A DNA stretch of 64,000 nucleotides from a virus (taxonomy: Duplodnaviria > Heunggongvirae > Uroviricota > Caudoviricetes), in the IMG/VR virus record IMGVR_UViG_3300042901_002340; one strand, 5' to 3'. The translations under genes and the position numbers were made by a program. The first letter of the stretch is position 1. Each line of letters opens with the position of its first letter. This document shows, in pieces, positions 17,351 to 64,000 of this stretch. Under the pieces are notes generated by a model. That model was not told the origin of the DNA and searched no databases. It worked only from the letters and a program-made list of their open reading frames with translations.

Positions 17351-17442
17351 TGACCAGTACAGGATTCGAACCTGTCATCCGTTCTATCGCCATTTCTTGT
17401 GGGATTCGAACCCCGATAGATAGGACTGCCAACATCCGGTCA
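17351..17442 (-). tRNA. tRNA-like element T1 (92 nt): canonical T-arm plus 7-bp acceptor stem, non-canonical interior
   Basis: Minus-sense 3' end is ACAGG-TTCGAAT-CCTGT-ACTGGTC-A. The 5' end TGACCGG pairs fully with it. The interior holds a second T-loop-like GGG-TTCGAAT-CCC inside a 7-bp hairpin TCTATCG/CGATAGA. Confidence 0.4.
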
Positions 17443-17587
17443 TAAAAATCATCCATATAAACACCCTTGAGGTTGGATCGTTCTGAAATACGTTCAGAAA
17501 CCTTAGTTGATTACCCCGGTTTAGTTTACATCGTCCAATTGACCACACCCTCTGACCCTTAGCGAGGTATGATGAATGAATGATTAG

Positions 17588-17697
17588 TGGTCGGTATAGG
17601 ATTCGAACCCATTTATATCGTGTGCATAGCCTTACACATAAAGTTCGTTTGACTATCCCTTCAATTTACGATTGCCTAGCCAATCAGCCACCTGACC
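17588..17697 (-). tRNA. tRNA-like element T2 (110 nt)
   Basis: 3' end ATGGG-TTCGAAT-CCTAT-ACCGACC-A. 5' end GGTCAGGTGGCTGATTGG... pairs with the 3' strand at 5 of 7 positions. Too long for a standard tRNA. Confidence 0.35.
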
Positions 17698-17943
17698 AAA
17701 AATGATGAATCAAAAAATTTCCGCCTTGGCTAAAAAATATCATCATCTGCTAAGACTTCTTTGAATGGTTCAGGTACCTAAATAGTTCAAGCTATTCTGA
17801 ATCTACATGTCATTAAAGCATTAGCTTTTTTAAGGTTCAAATCCGAACTGTAACTCATTTAATCCTTAACTTGTCGAAGCAAGTTTCTAGGTTTACCCCT
17901 AGCACTCCGTAGATACCACAGAGTAGTTAACATCGCTGATTTG

Positions 17944-18047
17944 TGGTCTGGACAGGATTTGAACCTGTATGAAGTTTACACCATTAAGGGACTTACACCC
18001 ACCTATTAAGGCTTTCTTTAAGCGTCTACCAATTCCGCCACCTGACC
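17944..18047 (-). tRNA. tRNA-like element T3 (104 nt) with a type-II (Leu/Ser/Tyr-like) D-arm
   Basis: 5' end GGTCAGG-TG-GCGGAATTGGTAGACGC is essentially the E. coli tRNA-Leu D-arm. 3' end ACAGG-TTCAAAT-CCTGT-CCAGACC-A. About 53 nt lie between the D-arm and T-arm, too many for a canonical anticodon arm plus variable arm. Confidence 0.45.
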
Positions 18048-18052
18048 AATTA

Positions 18053-18559
18053 TTATTCGCAATTAATTTTTCGAATGTTATAATTTGTAAATAAATTTAC
18101 ATAGTAATTTATTTCGTCTGGTCCCATTTTATATTGAAAAGAGACGTTATCAATCCCGTTAATGTATCTAACATAATTAATTTTTTTACTTTTCAAAATT
18201 ATGAATTCCAATTCTGATAATTTAAAATAAAAAATATTTCCACTTTTTGATTCATCCGTGGATTTTATTTTTAATCTACCCCCATCCTTAAATGAAAAGA
18301 GCAATTGACATTTTTTACTTGGACCACCAATGTTTGATTTAATTACTATAAGGCCATGGCAAGACAATCTATTGCCATCTATTTGGTAATTTGGTTTTAA
18401 TGTAAACCACTTTGTTCTATCAATATTTGAACAAACCACACCACTTGGTCCATAAATTTCGGTCTTATTGGTGCAGTCATCAATGGTAACTCGATCGTTT
18501 TGTGAATATATTGAATTTATCGCTAATATTAAAGCTAATGCAATCAATGTTTTTTTCAT
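18053..18559 (-). CDS. Secreted or lipoprotein-like hypothetical protein (start moved to the internal Met MKKTLIALALILAINS)
   Basis: The ORF-track N-terminal extension (18560..18676) overlaps tRNA-like element T4. The internal Met is followed by a signal-peptide-like segment. Confidence 0.5.
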   Translation of the reverse strand: MKKTLIALALILAINSIYSQNDRVTIDDCTNKTEIYGPSGVVCSNIDRTKWFTLKPNYQIDGNRLSCHGLIVIKSNIGGPSKKCQLLFSFKDGGRLKIKSTDESKSGNIFYFKLSELEFIILKSKKINYVRYINGIDNVSFQYKMGPDEINYYVNLFTNYNIRKINCE

Positions 18560-18578
18560 TATTTTTATATTCTTATTA

Positions 18579-18736
18579 GTAGTCAGAGTGGGATTCGAAC
18601 CCACGATGGTAATTGGAGCGTTGATTCTTCCACTGTCGCTAACAGGGGTTCCAAATCCTGTGCGTCCTTTCTCCAATTTAGCGTCTGCCTCGTTATAACA
18701 GGATTTCTCGCATTATAAGCCTTCCGCCACCTGACT
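18579..18736 (-). tRNA. tRNA-like element T4 (158 nt) with a ~32-nt insertion in the D-loop region
   Basis: 5' end AGTCAGG-TG-GCGGAA[GGCTTATAATGCGAGAAATCCTGTTATAACGAG]GCAGACGC. 3' end GTGGG-TTCGAAT-CCCAC-TCTGACT-A. The acceptor stem is 7 of 7 with one G-U pair. Confidence 0.35.
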
Positions 18737-50209: not shown

Positions 50210-50471
50210 CTTTTTGGTATTTATCTAAAAATTTTTGTATTATCGAAGATCCGCTCGATGACTTTCCAACAATCATGTTTAGCTCACCATCCTGTGGGCC
50301 AACCATATTATTCAAAGCCTCTGCCATTCTTTCCTTGAGTGACATGTTAGCTAATCTCTCCTCAGCTGCTTTATTTTCAAGATCAATGAACTCCTTCCAC
50401 TCCGGAGAGGACACGATTTCATTTATGCTATTGTACTTCAACTTCTTCAGATTTAGGTGATTTAATTTCAA
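50202..50471 (-). CDS. Hypothetical small protein
   Basis: 89-aa ORF. Confidence 0.4.
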   Translation of the reverse strand: MKLNHLNLKKLKYNSINEIVSSPEWKEFIDLENKAAEERLANMSLKERMAEALNNMVGPQDGELNMIVGKSSSGSSIIQKFLDKYQKDV

Positions 50472-51282
50472 ACTCCGGAATCATGACATCCATAAATTCT
50501 CTCTCCTGTGTGAATATAGGTGTCGGAATCATTTGCCATTTCAGTCTTTCAACCTGGCCATCTCTACCTTCAATCATTGTTGGTACCTTAGCAATAATGC
50601 CACCTCTTTTTTCTCTGAAGTGATAGTCATTCCAGTTGATTCCTTTCTGAAAAATCATCTCTTGCATGTCCTTCTCCTTCTTGCCATTTAATTCACTTTG
50701 TGAATATAGGCTTTGCGCAACGGATTGGATTGAGTTTCTAGTTCCATCTTGCTGTCTGAAGATGAAATAGTTCTCAACCTCACTTTTTTGTGGAATCTGA
50801 AACACCCTAGCATCGAACTCTGCTAGTTTAAATTTTTCGATCTCTGCTTGACTCATTGTTTGATCCAATATCGAAGATGCTAAACTTGCCATTGGATCAA
50901 CATTGTTCTTAGCATATCTGATCATTCTCAGCTGGTTGAACTTTGCAGTTGCCATAGAAGCTGCAACCGATGCCATTTTTTGTAGATTCCCATCGAACCA
51001 CATTTGAGTGTCTCTCTCTTCGAAATCAGTAATAAGTATACTGATCTCATCTGATTGAACATAGCCAAATTTTGCTCCCTGTATATTCTTACAAAGGTAG
51101 GCGGTGGTCTCGTTCATGTCTGCAATTAAACCTGCATCAAATGGAGATACCAAACCTTTTGTGTAGGTGTGGAAAGCTTTCCCGTCGATTCTGATTATTG
51201 TGTACGTTCTCCGTGGAACATAGTATCTAAAACGGTCTTCGTAGAATTCTTTCATACGATCGCCAAGGCTAAAGATTTTCAT
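50428..51282 (-). CDS. Thg1-like protein (tRNA-His guanylyltransferase family 3'-5' nucleotidyltransferase)
   Basis: TIIRIDGKAFHTYTKG...FGYVQSDEISILI and ..KMASVAASMATAKF match the Thg1/TLP catalytic core (cf. VVVRLDGRNFHRF...AYGQSDEYSFVF, ..KFMTHVASQFASSY, as recalled). Confidence 0.75.
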   Translation of the reverse strand: MKIFSLGDRMKEFYEDRFRYYVPRRTYTIIRIDGKAFHTYTKGLVSPFDAGLIADMNETTAYLCKNIQGAKFGYVQSDEISILITDFEERDTQMWFDGNLQKMASVAASMATAKFNQLRMIRYAKNNVDPMASLASSILDQTMSQAEIEKFKLAEFDARVFQIPQKSEVENYFIFRQQDGTRNSIQSVAQSLYSQSELNGKKEKDMQEMIFQKGINWNDYHFREKRGGIIAKVPTMIEGRDGQVERLKWQMIPTPIFTQEREFMDVMIPEFEIKSPKSEEVEVQ

Positions 51283-51284
51283 AG

Positions 51285-52169
51285 TTAATTTTTTAATTCG
51301 TATAATCCCTCCCTAACTAGAACGCTGTGCAGATCTCTAATTCTAAAGTAGTAACATGCATTTTTTGTTGATCCTCCATAGTAATCATGATCGTAAGATT
51401 CATCAACATCAACACACTCAGCCCATATTTTTTTGTATAGCATGAATGATATATGTGGACAAACCTCGTTGATTATATCGTCGAAGGCACTAAAGTTGGA
51501 TACTGGTGCTTCCCCAGAAACCGTTCCTCCGCCTCCCCAGCAATCTTTCCAATCTCCACCTAGACACCAGGATTGTGAGGTAACTTTTCCATCCCGATCT
51601 GGGCAAGAATGCTTGGATGCAATCTCATCCCTAAAAACCTCCCATGCTAATTTCATTACAGTTTTATGTGTTTGTATCGAAACTTTGACATCCTTCATTT
51701 CTGATAGACTTTCTGATATTTTAGCAAGATCTGGTGTTTCTATTGTTGAATTTGCGATTGATATCGATGAGTTCTTATCCCTTCTTCCTCTATCGTTGTG
51801 CATGCACGCATCAATATCGGGTGTCCAGTAATTGATTACAACCTCAGTATTCTTTCTGATTTGTAACTTATTCAAAAGATCTATAATACCGCCATTCGTT
51901 GAAACGAAAAGATCCAATATAACCTCATCATAATGCGTGGAGCTATTTTGATATTCTCTGATCATCTCAACATCAGGTTTGGTCAGTGAAGCGGATGGAT
52001 ACCTTCTTCTGATCTCGTATCTCTCCCTCAACTTATCAAATTCTATATGAAGAACCCCACCTTTGCTCCTCATGCTTCCTGCTGGCCCCTGTTTATCTTT
52101 AGCCCATGTGGTCTTTCCTGATCCCGGTAAACCAACTGTTATATGTAATTTTTGATTATTCATTCTCAC
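51285..52169 (-). CDS. P-loop kinase (polynucleotide-kinase-like) next to the Thg1-like gene
   Basis: Walker A ITVGLPGSGKTTWAKD at the N-terminus. The downstream region has no clear HAD phosphatase motif. Confidence 0.45.
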   Translation of the reverse strand: MRMNNQKLHITVGLPGSGKTTWAKDKQGPAGSMRSKGGVLHIEFDKLRERYEIRRRYPSASLTKPDVEMIREYQNSSTHYDEVILDLFVSTNGGIIDLLNKLQIRKNTEVVINYWTPDIDACMHNDRGRRDKNSSISIANSTIETPDLAKISESLSEMKDVKVSIQTHKTVMKLAWEVFRDEIASKHSCPDRDGKVTSQSWCLGGDWKDCWGGGGTVSGEAPVSNFSAFDDIINEVCPHISFMLYKKIWAECVDVDESYDHDYYGGSTKNACYYFRIRDLHSVLVREGLYELKN

Positions 52170-58034: not shown

Positions 58035-58069
58035 CACAAATATATGATAATAATTCGGATTAAAAAAAT
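58035..58069 (-). promoter_or_regulatory. Conserved promoter element (cacaaatatatg ... ttcggattaaaaaaat)
   Basis: Lies upstream of 57779..58000. Confidence 0.5.
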
Positions 58070-58271
58070 AACAATAACAATTATTTTAAATTGTTTCTTT
58101 GGTATTTTATGGGATGGCTTAGTTCTTTCTATCTAAATTGGCAGTTTTATCTTGCGATTTTTCTTGAGGTGTAGTGCAGCAGCCCACTGCAGTTCTCTCC
58201 TTACCCAACTATTACCAATGCGTCCATCCTATAAAATACCGTTCATTCACCACGAAGAACATTTTATTTTT

Positions 58272-58340
58272 GTGGAGAGAGAAGGATTCGAACCTCCAAT
58301 CTTATTGCTTTACCTACACGTGACTTTAAGCATATCTCCC
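58272..58340 (-). tRNA. tRNA-like element T5 (69 nt)
   Basis: 5' end GGGGAGA pairs 7 of 7 (one G-U) with 3' TCTCTCC-A. T-arm GGAGG-TTCGAAT-CCTTC. The interior GCTT-AAAGTCACGTGTAGGTA-AAGC does not give a canonical D-arm or anticodon arm. Confidence 0.4.
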
Positions 58341-58351
58341 CATTTATATTT

Positions 58352-58458
58352 GTGGCCAGTGCAGGAATCGAACCTGCTGTTAATGCCAAAGCTCCACGAC
58401 ATCAACCATTGCTTTATAGGAACTTTCTAATGTGCAGGTTCCATCCCTGCATTCTGGC
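58352..58458 (-). tRNA. tRNA-like element T6 (107 nt)
   Basis: 5' end GGCCAGA; 3' end GCAGG-TTCGATT-CCTGC-ACTGGCC-A. The D-arm-like hairpin is GCAGGGATGGAACCTGC. Confidence 0.4.
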
Positions 58459-58543
58459 CGTTAAAAACAGAGGTCATCCAGTATACGGGGTGCGCCTCAC
58501 CTTATGCATCTAGGGCCCGTGCGTTTGTGTTTTACTTGTTTTG

Positions 58544-58620
58544 TGATTGGAACAGGATTCGAACCCATTTTTACCAGTACTCTCAATAGGCGTCGCGCCA
58601 CAATCAAGCTATTTCCAATC
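58544..58620 (-). tRNA. tRNA-like element T7 (77 nt)
   Basis: Perfect 7-bp terminal stem GATTGGA/TCCAATC, discriminator A, T-arm ATGGG-TTCGAAT-CCTGT. The interior has a GGCG-CGA-CGCC hairpin and no obvious anticodon stem. Confidence 0.45.
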
Positions 58621-58806
58621 GTTTAAAGAGCCTAGCCTGACCTGCCAGACAGTACATGTCGAGATTAATTTGGCGCCTCGTTATGTAGTAGACCCTTATG
58701 TTTTAACCCTGGACTTGGACTCTGCCTCGAACGATTTTATTAGTGATCCGCGGAACCACCTTATTTCGTGTCCAGTTATCACTGCAGCTTACAGTGACGT
58801 GGCTAG

Positions 58807-58933
58807 TGGGGGAAACAGGAATCGAACCTGTGACACTTTGAATCAGCTAAACCTCGCCTTTGTGTGAAGACGTCATAGATGCTATCTATGATGTAAGTTA
58901 GAGATGGATACCATACCGTTGGTCTATTCCCCC
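58807..58933 (-). tRNA. tRNA-like element T8 (127 nt)
   Basis: Perfect 7-bp terminal stem GGGGGAA/TTCCCCC-A, T-arm ACAGG-TTCGATT-CCTGT. The interior has a perfect 8-bp hairpin TCATAGAT-AGC-ATCTATGA. Confidence 0.4.
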
Positions 58934-59172
58934 TGTTGGAAACCAGTTAAAGCCGACCGATTTCCCTGTTATACCGACTTTTCCACTAGGTTAGGAAACT
59001 GTCTTCTGCAAAACCACCCTTACTTTTCCTTAAGGCTAGGAAAACTTTTAAACTACCCGGTCCTATTAACCTTGTTTTTAAATCTAAAACAATGTTCTCG
59101 TCCGATGGAGATGCACAATAAAAACTGCTTTATCTTCGTATTCTTTATCTTATTTCCCTTATTAATTACATT

Positions 59173-59206
59173 GCAAATATATGAAATTCTTTCGGAATAA
59201 AAAAAT
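59173..59206 (-). promoter_or_regulatory. Conserved promoter element placed to drive the minus-strand tRNA-like cluster 58272..58933
   Basis: gcaaatatatg ... ttcggaataaaaaaat. No protein gene lies between it and element T8, about 240 nt downstream on the minus strand. Confidence 0.45.
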
Positions 59207-59221
59207 AAATAATGAAAAAAA

Positions 59222-60124
59222 TTACATATTTAATCCTTCCTTCATTGATTCCTCCGAAAGCTTTCTAGCTTCCTCCATCTCTAAAGTGGATAAGAATTTA
59301 TCCAGTGTCAGATCACAATATTCATCTATCCAGTCGCCTATAAAGTACAATTTTCTAGTACCTTTAAGCACACCAAATAGAATTGGATCCTTGGCCTTTT
59401 CAACCTCGGCTTTTGTCATCTTTGTGGAATTGTCATACTTATCAAAATGCATAACCGCATAATTATCAAATAGCTCCGAAACGTCATATTTTTTCTTTTC
59501 CTCTATAACATCTTCCGGAATCATTCTGGCGTAGTTTTTTATCCACGTCAGTTTCAGCATTTTATCTTTTAGGTTTGCTTTTTTATAGAACTTAACTACA
59601 TCCTCCTCGGTAACGTATTTCATCTCACCAACCTCCAATAGTTTAGCTTCCGCAAGAACCCCATCCTTCTTATCTCTAAGTATTTCCAAGAAAGCTATCT
59701 GTCCATTATTCTTTGCAGTTTCTATTGCATTTGTATAGAATTCGACCGAGCCTGGATTTACCTCCAGAGTTTTTATTGAATCCTTAACATCATTAAAGAA
59801 TTCATCCACTGATTGATATCGGATTTTTGTTATCTTCTTGTTTGGAAATAGCATCTCCGCAGCTTTCAATTTAATCCAACTTTTAAACGTGTGCTCATGC
59901 ATGTGCCTATAGTGAAAATAATCAACCGCACGTACTTCTATTGAATCGGTGAGTGAATTTGCAGAATTTGAATCCCTTGTCATGGCATCCGAGAATGAAC
60001 TCATTCCACCAACCACGAAAGATCCGTTTGCTACTGATATGCTATTATTTTCCACCTTCTTGATGGCCTTGGGCATAGAGATGAAATTTTCAAATATCTC
60101 TAACTTGTTGGAATTTGTTATCAT
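59222..60124 (-). CDS. Hypothetical protein
   Basis: 300-aa ORF. Confidence 0.5.
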   Translation of the reverse strand: MITNSNKLEIFENFISMPKAIKKVENNSISVANGSFVVGGMSSFSDAMTRDSNSANSLTDSIEVRAVDYFHYRHMHEHTFKSWIKLKAAEMLFPNKKITKIRYQSVDEFFNDVKDSIKTLEVNPGSVEFYTNAIETAKNNGQIAFLEILRDKKDGVLAEAKLLEVGEMKYVTEEDVVKFYKKANLKDKMLKLTWIKNYARMIPEDVIEEKKKYDVSELFDNYAVMHFDKYDNSTKMTKAEVEKAKDPILFGVLKGTRKLYFIGDWIDEYCDLTLDKFLSTLEMEEARKLSEESMKEGLNM

Positions 60125-60127
60125 TGA

Positions 60128-60712
60128 CTAGTCTTTAAAAAGGTTTAATAAATATTCAAACATTGGTGCTAACTTATGATCCTTGTCATCGCCTCCGAGT
60201 TTAGTAACAAAATTGGCATTCTCTTTTTTGTACTTATCGTACATGGAGCTGCCTGTCATTTTTCCATATTGCACATTAGCTATACGGTCACAAAGCTTAA
60301 CGAAAACTGCTCCTGGTGTTGCTACTATTCCTGCATAGTATTTGTCATTGGCTCTCTCCGCACGATTTTTACCTTTCTCGTTGGTAACTGCATAAACTAT
60401 GTCAGCAGCATCTTTACCGAGATGATTTACCACGTCGTTATATGATGTTCTAGTATCTTCGATTGTATCATGCCCCCAACCAGCTTTTCTACAAGCCATT
60501 CTAAGGGAGACAAAGCCAATTCTGCTTCCGTCCAGAATCTCTCTAGATTTTCCGGTTTGCATGTCTTTCGTGTCGTCTAGGAGGTGTTCAAATTGCTGAG
60601 CCACCCTATCCACCATTCTTAGGTGAAAGCTGTATGGGATATATTTGTCATACATGTGGTTGGTGTTATCGTGTTGTGCTATGCACCAGTCTACGTAGGT
60701 TGTCAAATCCAT
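60128..60712 (-). CDS. HD-domain hydrolase, RelA/SpoT-Mesh1-like (possible small alarmone (p)ppGpp hydrolase)
   Basis: GWGHDTIEDT matches the SpoT/Mesh1 HD.xED signature. Upstream histidines HLRMVDRV precede it. 194 aa, typical of stand-alone hydrolases. Confidence 0.5.
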   Translation of the reverse strand: MDLTTYVDWCIAQHDNTNHMYDKYIPYSFHLRMVDRVAQQFEHLLDDTKDMQTGKSREILDGSRIGFVSLRMACRKAGWGHDTIEDTRTSYNDVVNHLGKDAADIVYAVTNEKGKNRAERANDKYYAGIVATPGAVFVKLCDRIANVQYGKMTGSSMYDKYKKENANFVTKLGGDDKDHKLAPMFEYLLNLFKD

Positions 60713-63602: not shown

Positions 63603-64000
63603 TATATACTTCTTTTAGTGTCTCTGTCAATATCCTTCTCTTTGATAGCTGCTCTTTTATCATAGGTCTTCTTTCCCTTTGCAAGTGCTATATCCAACTT
63701 GATTAATCCTTTCTCGTTGGTAAAAATTCTAAATGGAACTATAGTCATTCCTCTGTCCATATCATTCTGTAGCTTTTTAAGCTCACTTCTATTAAGAAGT
63801 AATTTTCTTTCCCTATTAGGTTCATGAGAATATGTCGAAGATATTGGAGTTATGTTTAGATTCTTTAGAAAAAGTTCCTTTCCATTGAAATAACAGTAGG
63901 AATCCACAAAAGAAACCCTACCGTCCCTAATAGCCTTTACTTCAGATCCCATTAGTTGCATTCCAGCAGTTAGAGTCCTAATAAACTCATAATCGAACCT
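63602..64000 (-). CDS. smpB: SmpB (SsrA/tmRNA-binding protein); the N-terminus runs past the window end
   Basis: SEVKAIRDGRVSFVDSYCYF..ELFLKNLNI.P.......HEPNRERKLLLNRSELKKL.......GMTIVPFRIF.NEKGLIKLDIALAKGKKTYDKRAAIKEKDIDRD aligns block by block with recalled bacterial SmpB (..TEVKSLRAG..SDSYA...LHISPY......HEPRRTRKLLLHRREL.KL...GLTLVPLKLY...G..K.ELALAKGKK.HDKR..IK.RD). Confidence 0.75.
   Translation of the reverse strand, partial: RFDYEFIRTLTAGMQLMGSEVKAIRDGRVSFVDSYCYFNGKELFLKNLNITPISSTYSHEPNRERKLLLNRSELKKLQNDMDRGMTIVPFRIFTNEKGLIKLDIALAKGKKTYDKRAAIKEKDIDRDTKRSI

Follow-up and report, generated by a model that had tools for sequence, protein, structure and literature searches.

Transfer RNA (tRNA) genes of phages are normally read as codon supply or as replacements for tRNAs cut by host defences. 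The shape of a tRNA is also used in other ways. The mascRNA of MALAT1 and MEN-beta is a tRNA-like processing signal at which RNase P and RNase Z make the ends of the flanking RNAs, and the antisense RNAs C4 of phage P1 and CI of phage P4 are matured by RNase P. In engineered tRNA scaffolds, a cargo RNA replaces the anticodon arm for stability and precise processing, and in tRNA-guide-RNA arrays the functional RNAs are separated by tRNAs that signal excision. The features of a tRNA that RNase P, RNase Z, and the CCA-adding enzyme recognise are the 12-base-pair (bp) acceptor/T stack, the T-loop, and, for the elbow, a GG-containing D-loop. Phage T4 itself makes two stable RNAs that are not tRNAs, species 1 and 2 (rnaC and rnaD), whose function is to our knowledge still unknown. 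In plant mitochondria, non-decoding mimics of the acceptor and T-arm, the t-elements, lie within longer transcripts, where RNase P and RNase Z make the ends of the flanking RNAs (PMC1920247). Here we describe a locus with comparable features in a stretch of 64,000 nucleotides (nt), IMG/VR record IMGVR_UViG_3300042901_002340 (Caudoviricetes), referred to below in its whole length as the window. The window comes from a large T4-like phage that infects Bacteroidota, sampled in fresh water, wastewater, or the sea. Among its genes are those for NAD-salvage enzymes, a GIY-YIG endonuclease, and a gp23-like capsid paralogue. Four tRNA-like elements, T5 to T8 (cluster 2), lie on its minus strand, with a second group further left (cluster 1). 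The phage clade maintains a repertoire of such non-decoding tRNA bodies under structural selection, arrayed with folded RNAs behind their own promoter.

T5 to T8 share a common build (Table 1). The T-arm of each consists of a 5-bp stem and a TTCGAWT loop and is stacked on an acceptor stem of 6 to 7 bp, after which come the discriminator A and a C. The 3:70 pair is G:U in T5 only, being C:G in T6, U:A in T7, and G:C in T8. In every element of the clade looked at, the base after the discriminator is C, and CCA is not encoded. The original prediction, which was made from the letters of the window, had placed four minus-strand elements of T-arm plus acceptor stem here, and all were found again, as were the perfect 7-bp terminal stems of T7 and T8 and the perfect 8-bp hairpin inside T8 (TCATAGAT/ATCTATGA). 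It had also held that the interiors are unable to form either D-arms or anticodon arms. This stands for the anticodon arm, which is missing or replaced, but it does not for the D-arm, which is present in T6, T8, and T5. The D-arm of T6 has 5 bp and a GG loop (GCAGG-GATGGAA-CCTGC), the D-stem of T8 is weak (3 bp), and T5 keeps the stem with a loop enlarged to 17 nt and an 8-nt linker before the T-arm; in T7 neither a D-arm nor an anticodon arm can be recognised. Such elements cluster far above chance. All nine exact matches to GGTTCRAWTCC in the 64-kb window lie inside cluster 2 or cluster 1 (17.3-18.7 kb). A strict detector, which asks for a T-arm and a 7-bp acceptor stem, finds four elements in the window, where 200 Markov-shuffled windows average 0.26; with relaxed criteria the figures are six and 1.0.

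Table 1. Features of the RNA operon, of its surroundings, and of cluster 1 (positions in the window)
Feature	Position	Strand	Description
Cluster 1	17351-18736	minus	At least four more non-canonical tRNA-like elements, 92-157 nt; one with two T-arm hairpins
Thg1-like 3'-5' nucleotidyltransferase	50431-51282	minus	Pfam Thg1, 1.4e-25
P-loop polynucleotide-kinase-like protein	51288-52169	minus	Pfam AAA_33, 9e-5; PHROG polynucleotide kinase, 7e-6
Next copy of the promoter motif	58037-58067	minus	Marks the downstream end of the RNA unit
Trailer RNA	58085-58272	minus	Structured module of ~140 nt; closing stem GGTATTTTATAGGATGG / CCATCCCATAAAATACC; core GAGAACTGCAGTGGGCTGCTGCAC
T5	58273-58341	minus	69 nt; acceptor GGGGAGA/TCTCTCC, 7/7 pairs; G3:U70, A73
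T6	58353-58459	minus	107 nt; acceptor GGCCAGA/ACTGGCC, 6/7 pairs, one A.A mismatch
sp7-6	58460-58543	minus	Conserved RNA module of 84 nt in the T7-T6 interval
T7	58544-58620	minus	77 nt; acceptor GATTGGA/TCCAATC, 7/7 pairs; T-arm; interior irregular
Spacer modules A and B	58621-58806	minus	A, ~58703-58806; B, ~58621-58697; conserved structured RNAs
T8	58807-58933	minus	127 nt; acceptor GGGGGAA/TTCCCCC, 7/7 pairs
Leader RNA	58934-59166	minus	Two AAAAGTTT-hairpin-AAAGTA motifs and other helices
Promoter motif TTTTTTATTCCGAAAGAATTTCATATATTTG	59174-59204	minus	Bacteroidota-type TAnnTTTG -7 box and upstream T-tract; faces the RNA operon
300-amino-acid open reading frame	59225-60124	minus	Directly upstream of the operon; anchor for finding relatives
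HD-domain protein resembling MESH1/small alarmone hydrolase	60131-60712	minus	194 amino acids; two genes upstream of the operon
SmpB	63605-64000	minus	Pfam, 6.8e-40; reading frame runs off the window end

The open reading frame (ORF) of 300 amino acids directly upstream was used as an anchor for finding relatives in viral and metagenomic collections. This yielded about ten close ones (L001, L002, L009, L090, L091/L093, L094, and L199-L205), on contigs of up to 434 kb. Comparison with them and with models of known RNA classes shows that T5 to T8 have no decoding capacity. ARAGORN reports no tRNA and no transfer-messenger RNA (tmRNA) in the whole window. With the Rfam tRNA model (RF00005), T8 and T5 score 31.2 and 30.6 bits against a gathering score of 29, T7 stays below threshold at 18 bits, and T6 is not reported. 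In the Rfam alignments to tRNA, the anticodon arm appears as a 71-nt insertion in T8, and it is reduced to 3 nt in T5. A search for an anticodon arm with a 5-bp stem and a 7-nt loop bearing U33 and a purine at 37 finds no fitting stem-loop in T5, T6, or T7. The sole candidate loop of T8 is the top of its 8-bp hairpin, and its triplet is AGC in the window as against AGA in L001 and L002. The ARAGORN result, the marginal Rfam scores, and the deletion or replacement of the anticodon arm rule out canonical tRNAs. Because standard tRNA finders miss elements of this kind, the non-coding RNA content of phages is undercounted.

True decoding tRNAs would escape such tests if small introns or insertions had to be removed from them by a phage or host activity. 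When introns are allowed, ARAGORN at its default threshold does call T6 as a tRNA-Thr(GGT) with a 20-nt intron, and after lowering of the threshold it also calls T8 and T7; a kinase and other RNA-end enzymes are encoded nearby. However, the modelled introns lie at non-canonical positions (31/32, 34/35), the modelled stems are mismatched, and the putative anticodons differ among orthologues. Instead of a loop, T8 orthologues have a UUCG-capped helix or unrelated inserts of 25-70 nt, and T5 and the elements of 57 nt found in relatives are entirely without an anticodon arm. Rfam shows neither a group I intron nor a ribozyme, and the roughly 60 window ORFs that were scanned give no Pfam match to a splicing endonuclease or an RNA ligase. 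The T8 of L093 and L090 has a symmetric 5x5 internal loop (CAGUA/GAACA) and no bulge-helix-bulge; for the T8 and T6 inserts of the window this was inspected by folding only. With weak and inconsistent intron models and unconserved loops, intron-containing tRNAs are largely refuted, and we regard them as highly improbable.

The specific defect of T5 to T8 thus concerns the anticodon arm, which is deleted in T5 and replaced by other RNA in T6, T8, and T7. For T8, at least three versions of the replacement exist among the window and its relatives. In the 124-127-nt form (window, L001, L002, L200, and L201) it is a stem with two hairpins, and the insert of the window is branched, with a CGTCTT/AAGGCG hairpin beside the 8-bp one. 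The 90-102-nt form (L093, L203, L090, and L202) has a textbook D-arm (GCTCAGTTGGTAGAGC), a covarying 4-bp remnant of the anticodon stem (UCUU/AAGA changing to UCCU/AGGA), and a conserved internal loop of the AGUA/GAA type, with a hairpin cap that is either UUCG or a longer loop; in L093 and L090, this internal loop and a UUCG-capped hairpin stand where the anticodon loop would be. A 101-nt form occurs in L094. In T6, an insert of about 55 nt replaces both the anticodon and the variable arm. Between the window and L093 it shows zero to one differences as against about nine changes in the scaffold stems, which makes it the most constrained part of the element. A minimum-free-energy fold of T6 in which the D-arm pairs over a long range with the T-arm was rejected because the changes in L093 compensate each other within the D hairpin and would mismatch the long-range helix. 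T5 and the armless elements of 57-59 nt in the relatives are paralogues. In both there is no arm at all, and N26, 2-4 nt, and a segment resembling a variable loop connect the D-arm straight to the T-arm.

Compensatory change maintains the acceptor, T, and D stems, which are under selection. Across nine distinct orthologues of T8, the 12 pairs of the acceptor and T helices are paired in 99.1% of cells, and three of them have changed on both sides. The covariation score is 0.222 as against 0.130 in shuffles, with none of 500 shuffles reaching the observed value, and when the 3' partner is slid by one to three columns as a control, the double changes all vanish. The D-stem of T8 has changed from A-U to G-C in L200. 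Among true orthologues of T6 (window/L199, L001, and L093), the acceptor pairs 2:71 and 3:70 show compensatory change, as does the D-stem (A-U to G-C), and the 57-59-nt armless family of the relatives has four compensatory pairs. The locus is 96.5% identical to that of L001 over 1.2 kb, compared with about 82-90% for the flanking genes, and the same ordering holds for L002 and L093. Divergence between the window and L001 taken module by module is uninformative since it is uniform, at 2-6%.

These data bear on the view that the elements have no function as RNA and are either decaying tRNA pseudogenes or relics at the DNA level, for instance scars of recombination or pieces of attachment sites. 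Their descent from tRNAs is clear: the T8 of L093 keeps a canonical D-arm, and other elements have D-arms of the class-II type. The breakpoints of cassettes coincide with element ends, which also fits recombination between similar T-arms. Yet double changes that compensate each other preserve the stems, and broken pairs are very few; the 5' acceptor strand is kept although an attachment site has no need of it, and the locus is conserved above its flanking genes and has its own promoter. Moreover, armless elements occur at 75 other phage loci, where integrase is outside the 25 commonest Pfam families of the neighbours. The original prediction would have been overturned, in favour of decaying pseudogenes, by ordinary tRNAs at this locus in related phages together with non-compensatory substitutions in these copies. 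Neither was found in the roughly ten related contigs, in which ARAGORN calls no tRNA at this locus, and the comparative alignment reveals compensatory double changes in acceptor and T stems with almost no broken pairs. Because covariation preserves the stems, the pseudogene reading is largely refuted, and we find it scarcely credible.

Across the window and ten relatives, mimics and the modules between them come, go, and recombine as cassettes, and the breakpoints fall at the ends of mimics. Read in RNA-strand order, the window has the leader, T8, spacer A/B, T7, sp7-6, T6, T5, and the trailer. L199, whose anchor protein is 95% identical, is without exactly T7 and sp7-6. T7 is carried by the window and L001 only, and T5 is found in the window, L001, and L199 only. 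In L002 and L201, the leader, T8, spacer A/B, and trailer are preceded by a cassette made of a small ORF and its armless mimic. The same cassette opens L093 and L203, which continue with the leader, a T8 of 90 nt, spacer A, an insert, a 153-nt mimic, spacer B, T6, and the trailer. In L200, sp7-6 stands between two other mimics, and in L009 and L202 the module sets are largely different. Further types of element in the relatives include the 153-nt one, which has a class-II D-arm, and others of 92, 120, and 140 nt; some have a second T-arm-like hairpin, as in cluster 1. This internal hairpin (GGTTCGAATCC), which replaces the D or anticodon region, was seen at window positions 17351-17442 (minus strand), at 6659-6750 in L009, and at 5240-5359 in L202.

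The cassette that the window has not kept consists, in the relatives, of a Cys-rich small ORF of 82-83 amino acids (ending in ...SWPDPDSPTGYSQKCSYEVWGTCQSPCNGDC), 8-10 nt, and an armless mimic of 57-59 nt. It lies at 7426-7738 in L001, 6951-7262 in L002, 6337-6646 in L009, and 5424-5738 in L093, and of it the window retains only a remnant of the start of the small ORF, at about 59135-59170. In the relatives the mimic thus follows the stop codon of the small ORF by 8-10 nt, which is the position of a processing signal for the 3' end of a messenger RNA (mRNA).

The operon has a dedicated promoter. A conserved promoter element had been predicted at 59173..59206, pointing into an ORF-free region of 1.2 kb. 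This is confirmed, at slightly narrower limits (Table 1), as one of nine copies of a 31-nt motif (TTTTTTWWTYCGRAW..CATATATTTG) in the window; all are on the minus strand, from 26539 to 59204, and none is expected by chance. The motif is probably a phage-specific promoter class. The copy in front of the operon is kept in L001, L002, L009, and L093. The minus strand has no ORF between 58001 and 59221, and no intrinsic terminator is predicted within the RNA unit. Coding on the opposite strand was discarded as an explanation: the plus-strand ORFs of 92-106 amino acids are fragmented differently in each relative and are not conserved. A small frame with a GTG start in the trailer is not a gene either, having frame-shifting indels and, in the phage contig L082, a stop after seven codons. 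The central claim of the original prediction, non-canonical tRNA-like elements under a promoter of their own, is supported.

Between the mimics, and alternating with them, the leader, the spacers, sp7-6, and the trailer are self-contained folded RNAs. The leader is 87-98% identical in relatives, and RNAalifold gives it 43 pairs, ten of which show compensatory change. Spacer A forms a closed, self-contained fold whose first base is N74 of T8, right after the discriminator, and it is near-invariant in eight sequences; in L093, L200, and L202, cassettes are inserted between spacers A and B. Module sp7-6 is 97.5% identical in L001 and L200, and in the latter it is flanked by two different tRNA-like elements. 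The trailer was found in most relatives with enough downstream sequence and went undetected in L202; its closing stem is long and has three compensatory pairs. A pairing of GGAGAGA in the trailer with the 3' strand of T5 was considered and dropped, because relatives have T6 at that position.

We lean slightly towards reading the locus as a polycistronic non-coding RNA array whose tRNA-mimic modules would be cut out and stabilised by host RNase P, RNase Z, and CCA-adding enzyme. Transcription from the promoter would give one non-coding precursor of about 1.1 kb that holds all the elements. Each mimic would then be cleaved at its 5' end by host RNase P and after its discriminator by RNase Z or exonucleases, and the CCA-adding enzyme would finish the 3' end; discrete, stable small RNAs would be the outcome of this dicing of the precursor. 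In this scheme the mimics would be both punctuation or excision signals and stabilising scaffolds for their own inserts. The data show the anatomy, the lack of decoding capacity, the selection on the stems, the modular cassettes, and the dedicated promoter; how the precursor is cut, how stable its products are, and what they do downstream is what we infer. The mimics keep the acceptor/T-arm stack (7+5 bp), the T-loop, usually a D-arm with GG, the discriminator A, and C74, and in the window and its ten relatives they sit at the boundaries of presumably co-transcribed modules, in a layout of the t-element/mascRNA type. Dicing by the tRNA-processing machinery appears likeliest because the features that it recognises are kept, because mimics and self-contained RNAs take turns as they do where tRNAs punctuate a transcript, and because in relatives an armless mimic comes straight after a small ORF.

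Several points weigh against this reading. In L002 and L201, the trailer directly follows spacer B; a mimic is thus not needed as punctuation at each junction. Punctuation alone would need just one minimal type of element, and the inserts are diverse; this diversity, together with the near-invariant insert of T6, points to insert functions that the processing model does not name. The orthologues of T5 and T7 are near-identical only, which puts them beyond a covariation test and leaves their folds to rest on sequence features. Recent recombination may also account in part for the locus being conserved above its flanks.

If the processing model is true, the locus would be a natural counterpart of engineered tRNA scaffolds and tRNA-guide-RNA arrays, and the counterpart in a bacterial virus of organellar tRNA punctuation. 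In their predicted function the elements resemble t-elements, mascRNA, and engineered tRNA scaffolds. With t-elements and mascRNA, the phage elements share the non-decoding acceptor and T-arm and the beads-on-a-string logic. These are eukaryotic or organellar, however, and usually flank mRNAs or long non-coding RNAs, whereas the phage arrays many mimics with inserts, whose processing we infer. T6 and T8 look like natural versions of the replacement of the anticodon arm in engineered scaffolds, the difference being that those scaffolds and arrays are synthetic designs; C4 and CI, for their part, are single regulatory RNAs, and Rfam models of the C4 or isrK type give no match at threshold.

Within T4-type phages, the nearest likeness is to T4 species 1 and 2, non-tRNA stable RNAs that lie beside tRNA-type genes at the end of the T4 tRNA operon. 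In rnaC, 10 nt separate a consensus T-arm (CCGGGTTCGAATCCCGG) from the annotated 3' end, but a terminal 7-bp acceptor stem was not found at the annotated 5' end. Apart from the generic T-arm, there is no sequence similarity between rnaC or rnaD and the elements described here, and T4 has eight canonical tRNAs alongside, in contrast to none at this locus. In rnaC (L169, AF158101 70908-71046), it is an internal segment, not the annotated 5' end, that complements the sequence after the T-arm. Comparative data of this kind may give a way into the role of the T4 species 1 and 2 RNAs, a question now 50 years old.

The bacterial Y RNA YrlA, which is bound by Ro60, also mimics a tRNA: it has D and T arms and an acceptor-like arm but lacks an anticodon. 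Its termini are on the anticodon side, and its acceptor is closed by a loop. In the phage elements the order is instead acceptor 5' strand, D, T, and acceptor 3' strand, and the acceptor ends are free. The tRNA-like domain of YrlA is bound by Ro60 (PMC4201824), and some jumbo phages encode Ro/TROVE (PMC7824862). Here, Rfam gives no Y RNA match, and there is no TROVE domain among the roughly 60 window ORFs scanned.

Armless mimics extend well beyond this clade. Viral contigs were searched for a canonical D-arm with GGTTCRA 6-12 nt further on, a distance that has no room for an anticodon arm. At least 120 contigs matched, with at least 75 distinct sequences of 55-60 nt that have complete acceptor and T stems and a G+C content of 46-72%. 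The loci are L208-L326 (for example L212 3085, L239 2788, and L266 11124), with a linker of about 9 nt. Armless mimics of 55-60 nt are widespread in viral contigs, many of them unrelated, which suggests that the class is broad and easy to survey. A full-text literature search found no description of it, which does not prove it undescribed. In bacterial genomes the same scan returned mostly ordinary tRNAs, with 14 of 120 being truly armless among the matches listed; these bacterial elements (L328, L344, L348, L352, L378, and L403) probably sit in prophages. The 136 ORFs that neighbour armless loci include several terminase and portal genes. An origin as attachment sites was set aside, integrase being outside the 25 commonest Pfam families of these 136 ORFs. 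A canonical tRNA lies nearby at 22 of 75 armless loci, among the matches listed.

The genes around the operon raise other possible roles. The Thg1-like, polynucleotide-kinase-like, and smpB genes that the original prediction had placed nearby are all confirmed by Pfam or PHROG. The HD-domain protein matches HDDC3/MESH1 and "Small Alarmone Hydrolase" entries of the PDB (phmmer, 1.4e-6 to 1e-5) and NCBIfam spoT_relA (1.5e-6); its PHROG label is metal-dependent phosphohydrolase, and in relatives it always adjoins the 300-amino-acid ORF. The surrounding 14 kb are thus rich in functions related to tRNA ends and ribosome rescue (SmpB, the protein resembling a small alarmone hydrolase (SAH), Thg1, and kinase). 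Proximity hints at a possible link of the operon to Thg1, the kinase, and SmpB. The synteny with SmpB, which has 91-95% amino-acid identity in L001, L002, L009, and L093, is confined to one clade; two distant SmpB-encoding phages lack mimics and have no tmRNA near the gene. In the L009 phage, the region upstream of SmpB holds a DUF805b RNA motif (Rfam RF02914, 36.5 bits; L194 1990-2024).

The mimics could be minimal tmRNA-like partners of the phage SmpB, which would fill the place of the anticodon arm and bring, for example, an alanyl-T5 to stalled ribosomes. The pair G3:U70 with A73 is the identity set of alanyl-tRNA synthetase, and T5 has both and no anticodon arm, like the tRNA-like domain of tmRNA, which is likewise an acceptor and T-arm without that arm. 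SmpB is encoded 4.7 kb upstream in the window and about 1.1 kb from the operon in L009, its 91-95% conservation holds in all close relatives, and no tmRNA can be detected within 8 kb of SmpB at five phage loci. Against this, SmpB is present in all relatives and T5 only in the three named above, and G3:U70 is missing from T6 to T8 and from the armless 57-mers. There is no mRNA-like domain, tag frame, or pseudoknot, and the mimics have real D-stems, which tmRNA does not. In its tmRNA mode, ARAGORN returns nothing even at a lowered threshold, and the tmRNA models of Rfam match only a 17-nt T-arm, at 10.2 bits. A canonical tmRNA may sit elsewhere in a genome of several hundred kb, or the host tmRNA may be used. 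A role as SmpB partners is thus very unlikely, and tmRNA or two-piece tmRNA as an identity for the elements was rejected for want of any model match.

Another role, which may equally be one downstream of processing, is that of decoys or sponges in a conflict over tRNA ends, the acceptor, CCA end, and elbow being displayed without the anticodon. Several toxins act at this end of the tRNA. The toxSAS enzymes pyrophosphorylate the CCA end, and some SAH enzymes reverse this (10.1101/2021.04.30.441581). FaRel2 picks its tRNAs through the acceptor stem, and toxSAS have been implicated in antiphage immunity (PMC11245113, PMC9712102), and MenT toxins extend tRNA acceptor stems (PMC10435456). Such decoys would be bound or modified by toxSAS (CapRel, FaRel2), MenT nucleotidyltransferases, or other tRNA-binding factors while leaving decoding undisturbed, and they would act with the SAH-like, Thg1-like, kinase, and SmpB proteins. 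The role is attractive because a tRNA body without an anticodon is what acceptor-end enzymes still recognise. It agrees with the gene context (SAH/MESH1-like hydrolase, SmpB, Thg1, and kinase), with the occurrence of armless mimics in unrelated phages, and with the fast turnover and diversity of mimic types among close relatives, which would fit an arms race. This support is contextual, however: the linked genes lie 1-7 kb off with unrelated genes between, the synteny stays within one clade, and the two distant SmpB-encoding phages are without mimics. A decoy of a catalytic toxin would also have to be very abundant or to bind very tightly, and the conserved non-mimic modules and the conserved T6 insert are left unexplained. 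We therefore consider a decoy role rather unlikely. It is compatible with the processing model and could be its downstream function; if true, it would be a new RNA-based anti-defence principle against enzymes that recognise tRNA ends.

The two ideas can be combined into a natural form of tRNA-scaffold display. Here anticodon-less bodies would excise and stabilise small RNAs and would also act, with the neighbouring proteins, as acceptor-end decoys or ligands, the 55-60-nt armless mimics at 75 or more other viral contigs being the minimal, widespread form. As decoys or ligands they would protect the real tRNA pool or occupy defence enzymes directed at tRNA ends (toxSAS, MenT, or similar). We put this forward as a speculation that is unlikely to hold.

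Returning to the processing array, some of its modules have features that reach beyond the locus. In L094, three tandem units of about 100 nt at 1600-1900 carry a hairpin motif (TTAAAAGTTTCTTT..AAGAAAGTACGG) that occurs twice in the leader of the window (~58975-59065) and may be a protein-binding repeat. A scan of viral contigs for this motif gave 26 loci, and the 24 new ones have no homology to the operon. The whole locus has no blastn match in 50,697 phage records. Antisense targets within the window were dismissed, as blastn-short of every module against it gave only the self-similarity of the T-arms.

The core of the trailer (GAGAACTGCAGTGGGCTGCTGCAC) recurs in unrelated phage contigs, right after a gene resembling SPFH/band-7 (L082 1015-1135; L083 4375-4495, minus strand; L084 5935-6055, minus strand). 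In these three contigs the closing and inner stems differ in sequence yet stay complementary. The core has no match in Rfam or in bacterial genomes, and it looks like an undescribed structured RNA motif.

The 300-amino-acid ORF belongs to a family with 887 homologues at E <= 1e-5 and bears the PHROG label "transposase". It has no sequence match in Pfam or the PDB, and with Foldseek its AlphaFold model (pLDDT 71) matches no PDB structure (best E-value 1.7); the idea that it is a tRNA enzyme was dropped for want of any such sequence or fold match. In the distant phages L006, L007, and L014, its homologues adjoin arrays of canonical tRNAs. L006, a phage contig of 388 kb, also has three non-canonical tRNA-Leu-like genes of 80 nt that ARAGORN misses (407-486, 651-730, and 1016-1095). 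They lie among canonical tRNA-Leu genes and have the acceptor GCCCCTG/CAGGGGT, 4-bp anticodon stems, and the loops CUUAAAC, CUUAGAC, and UUCAAAC.

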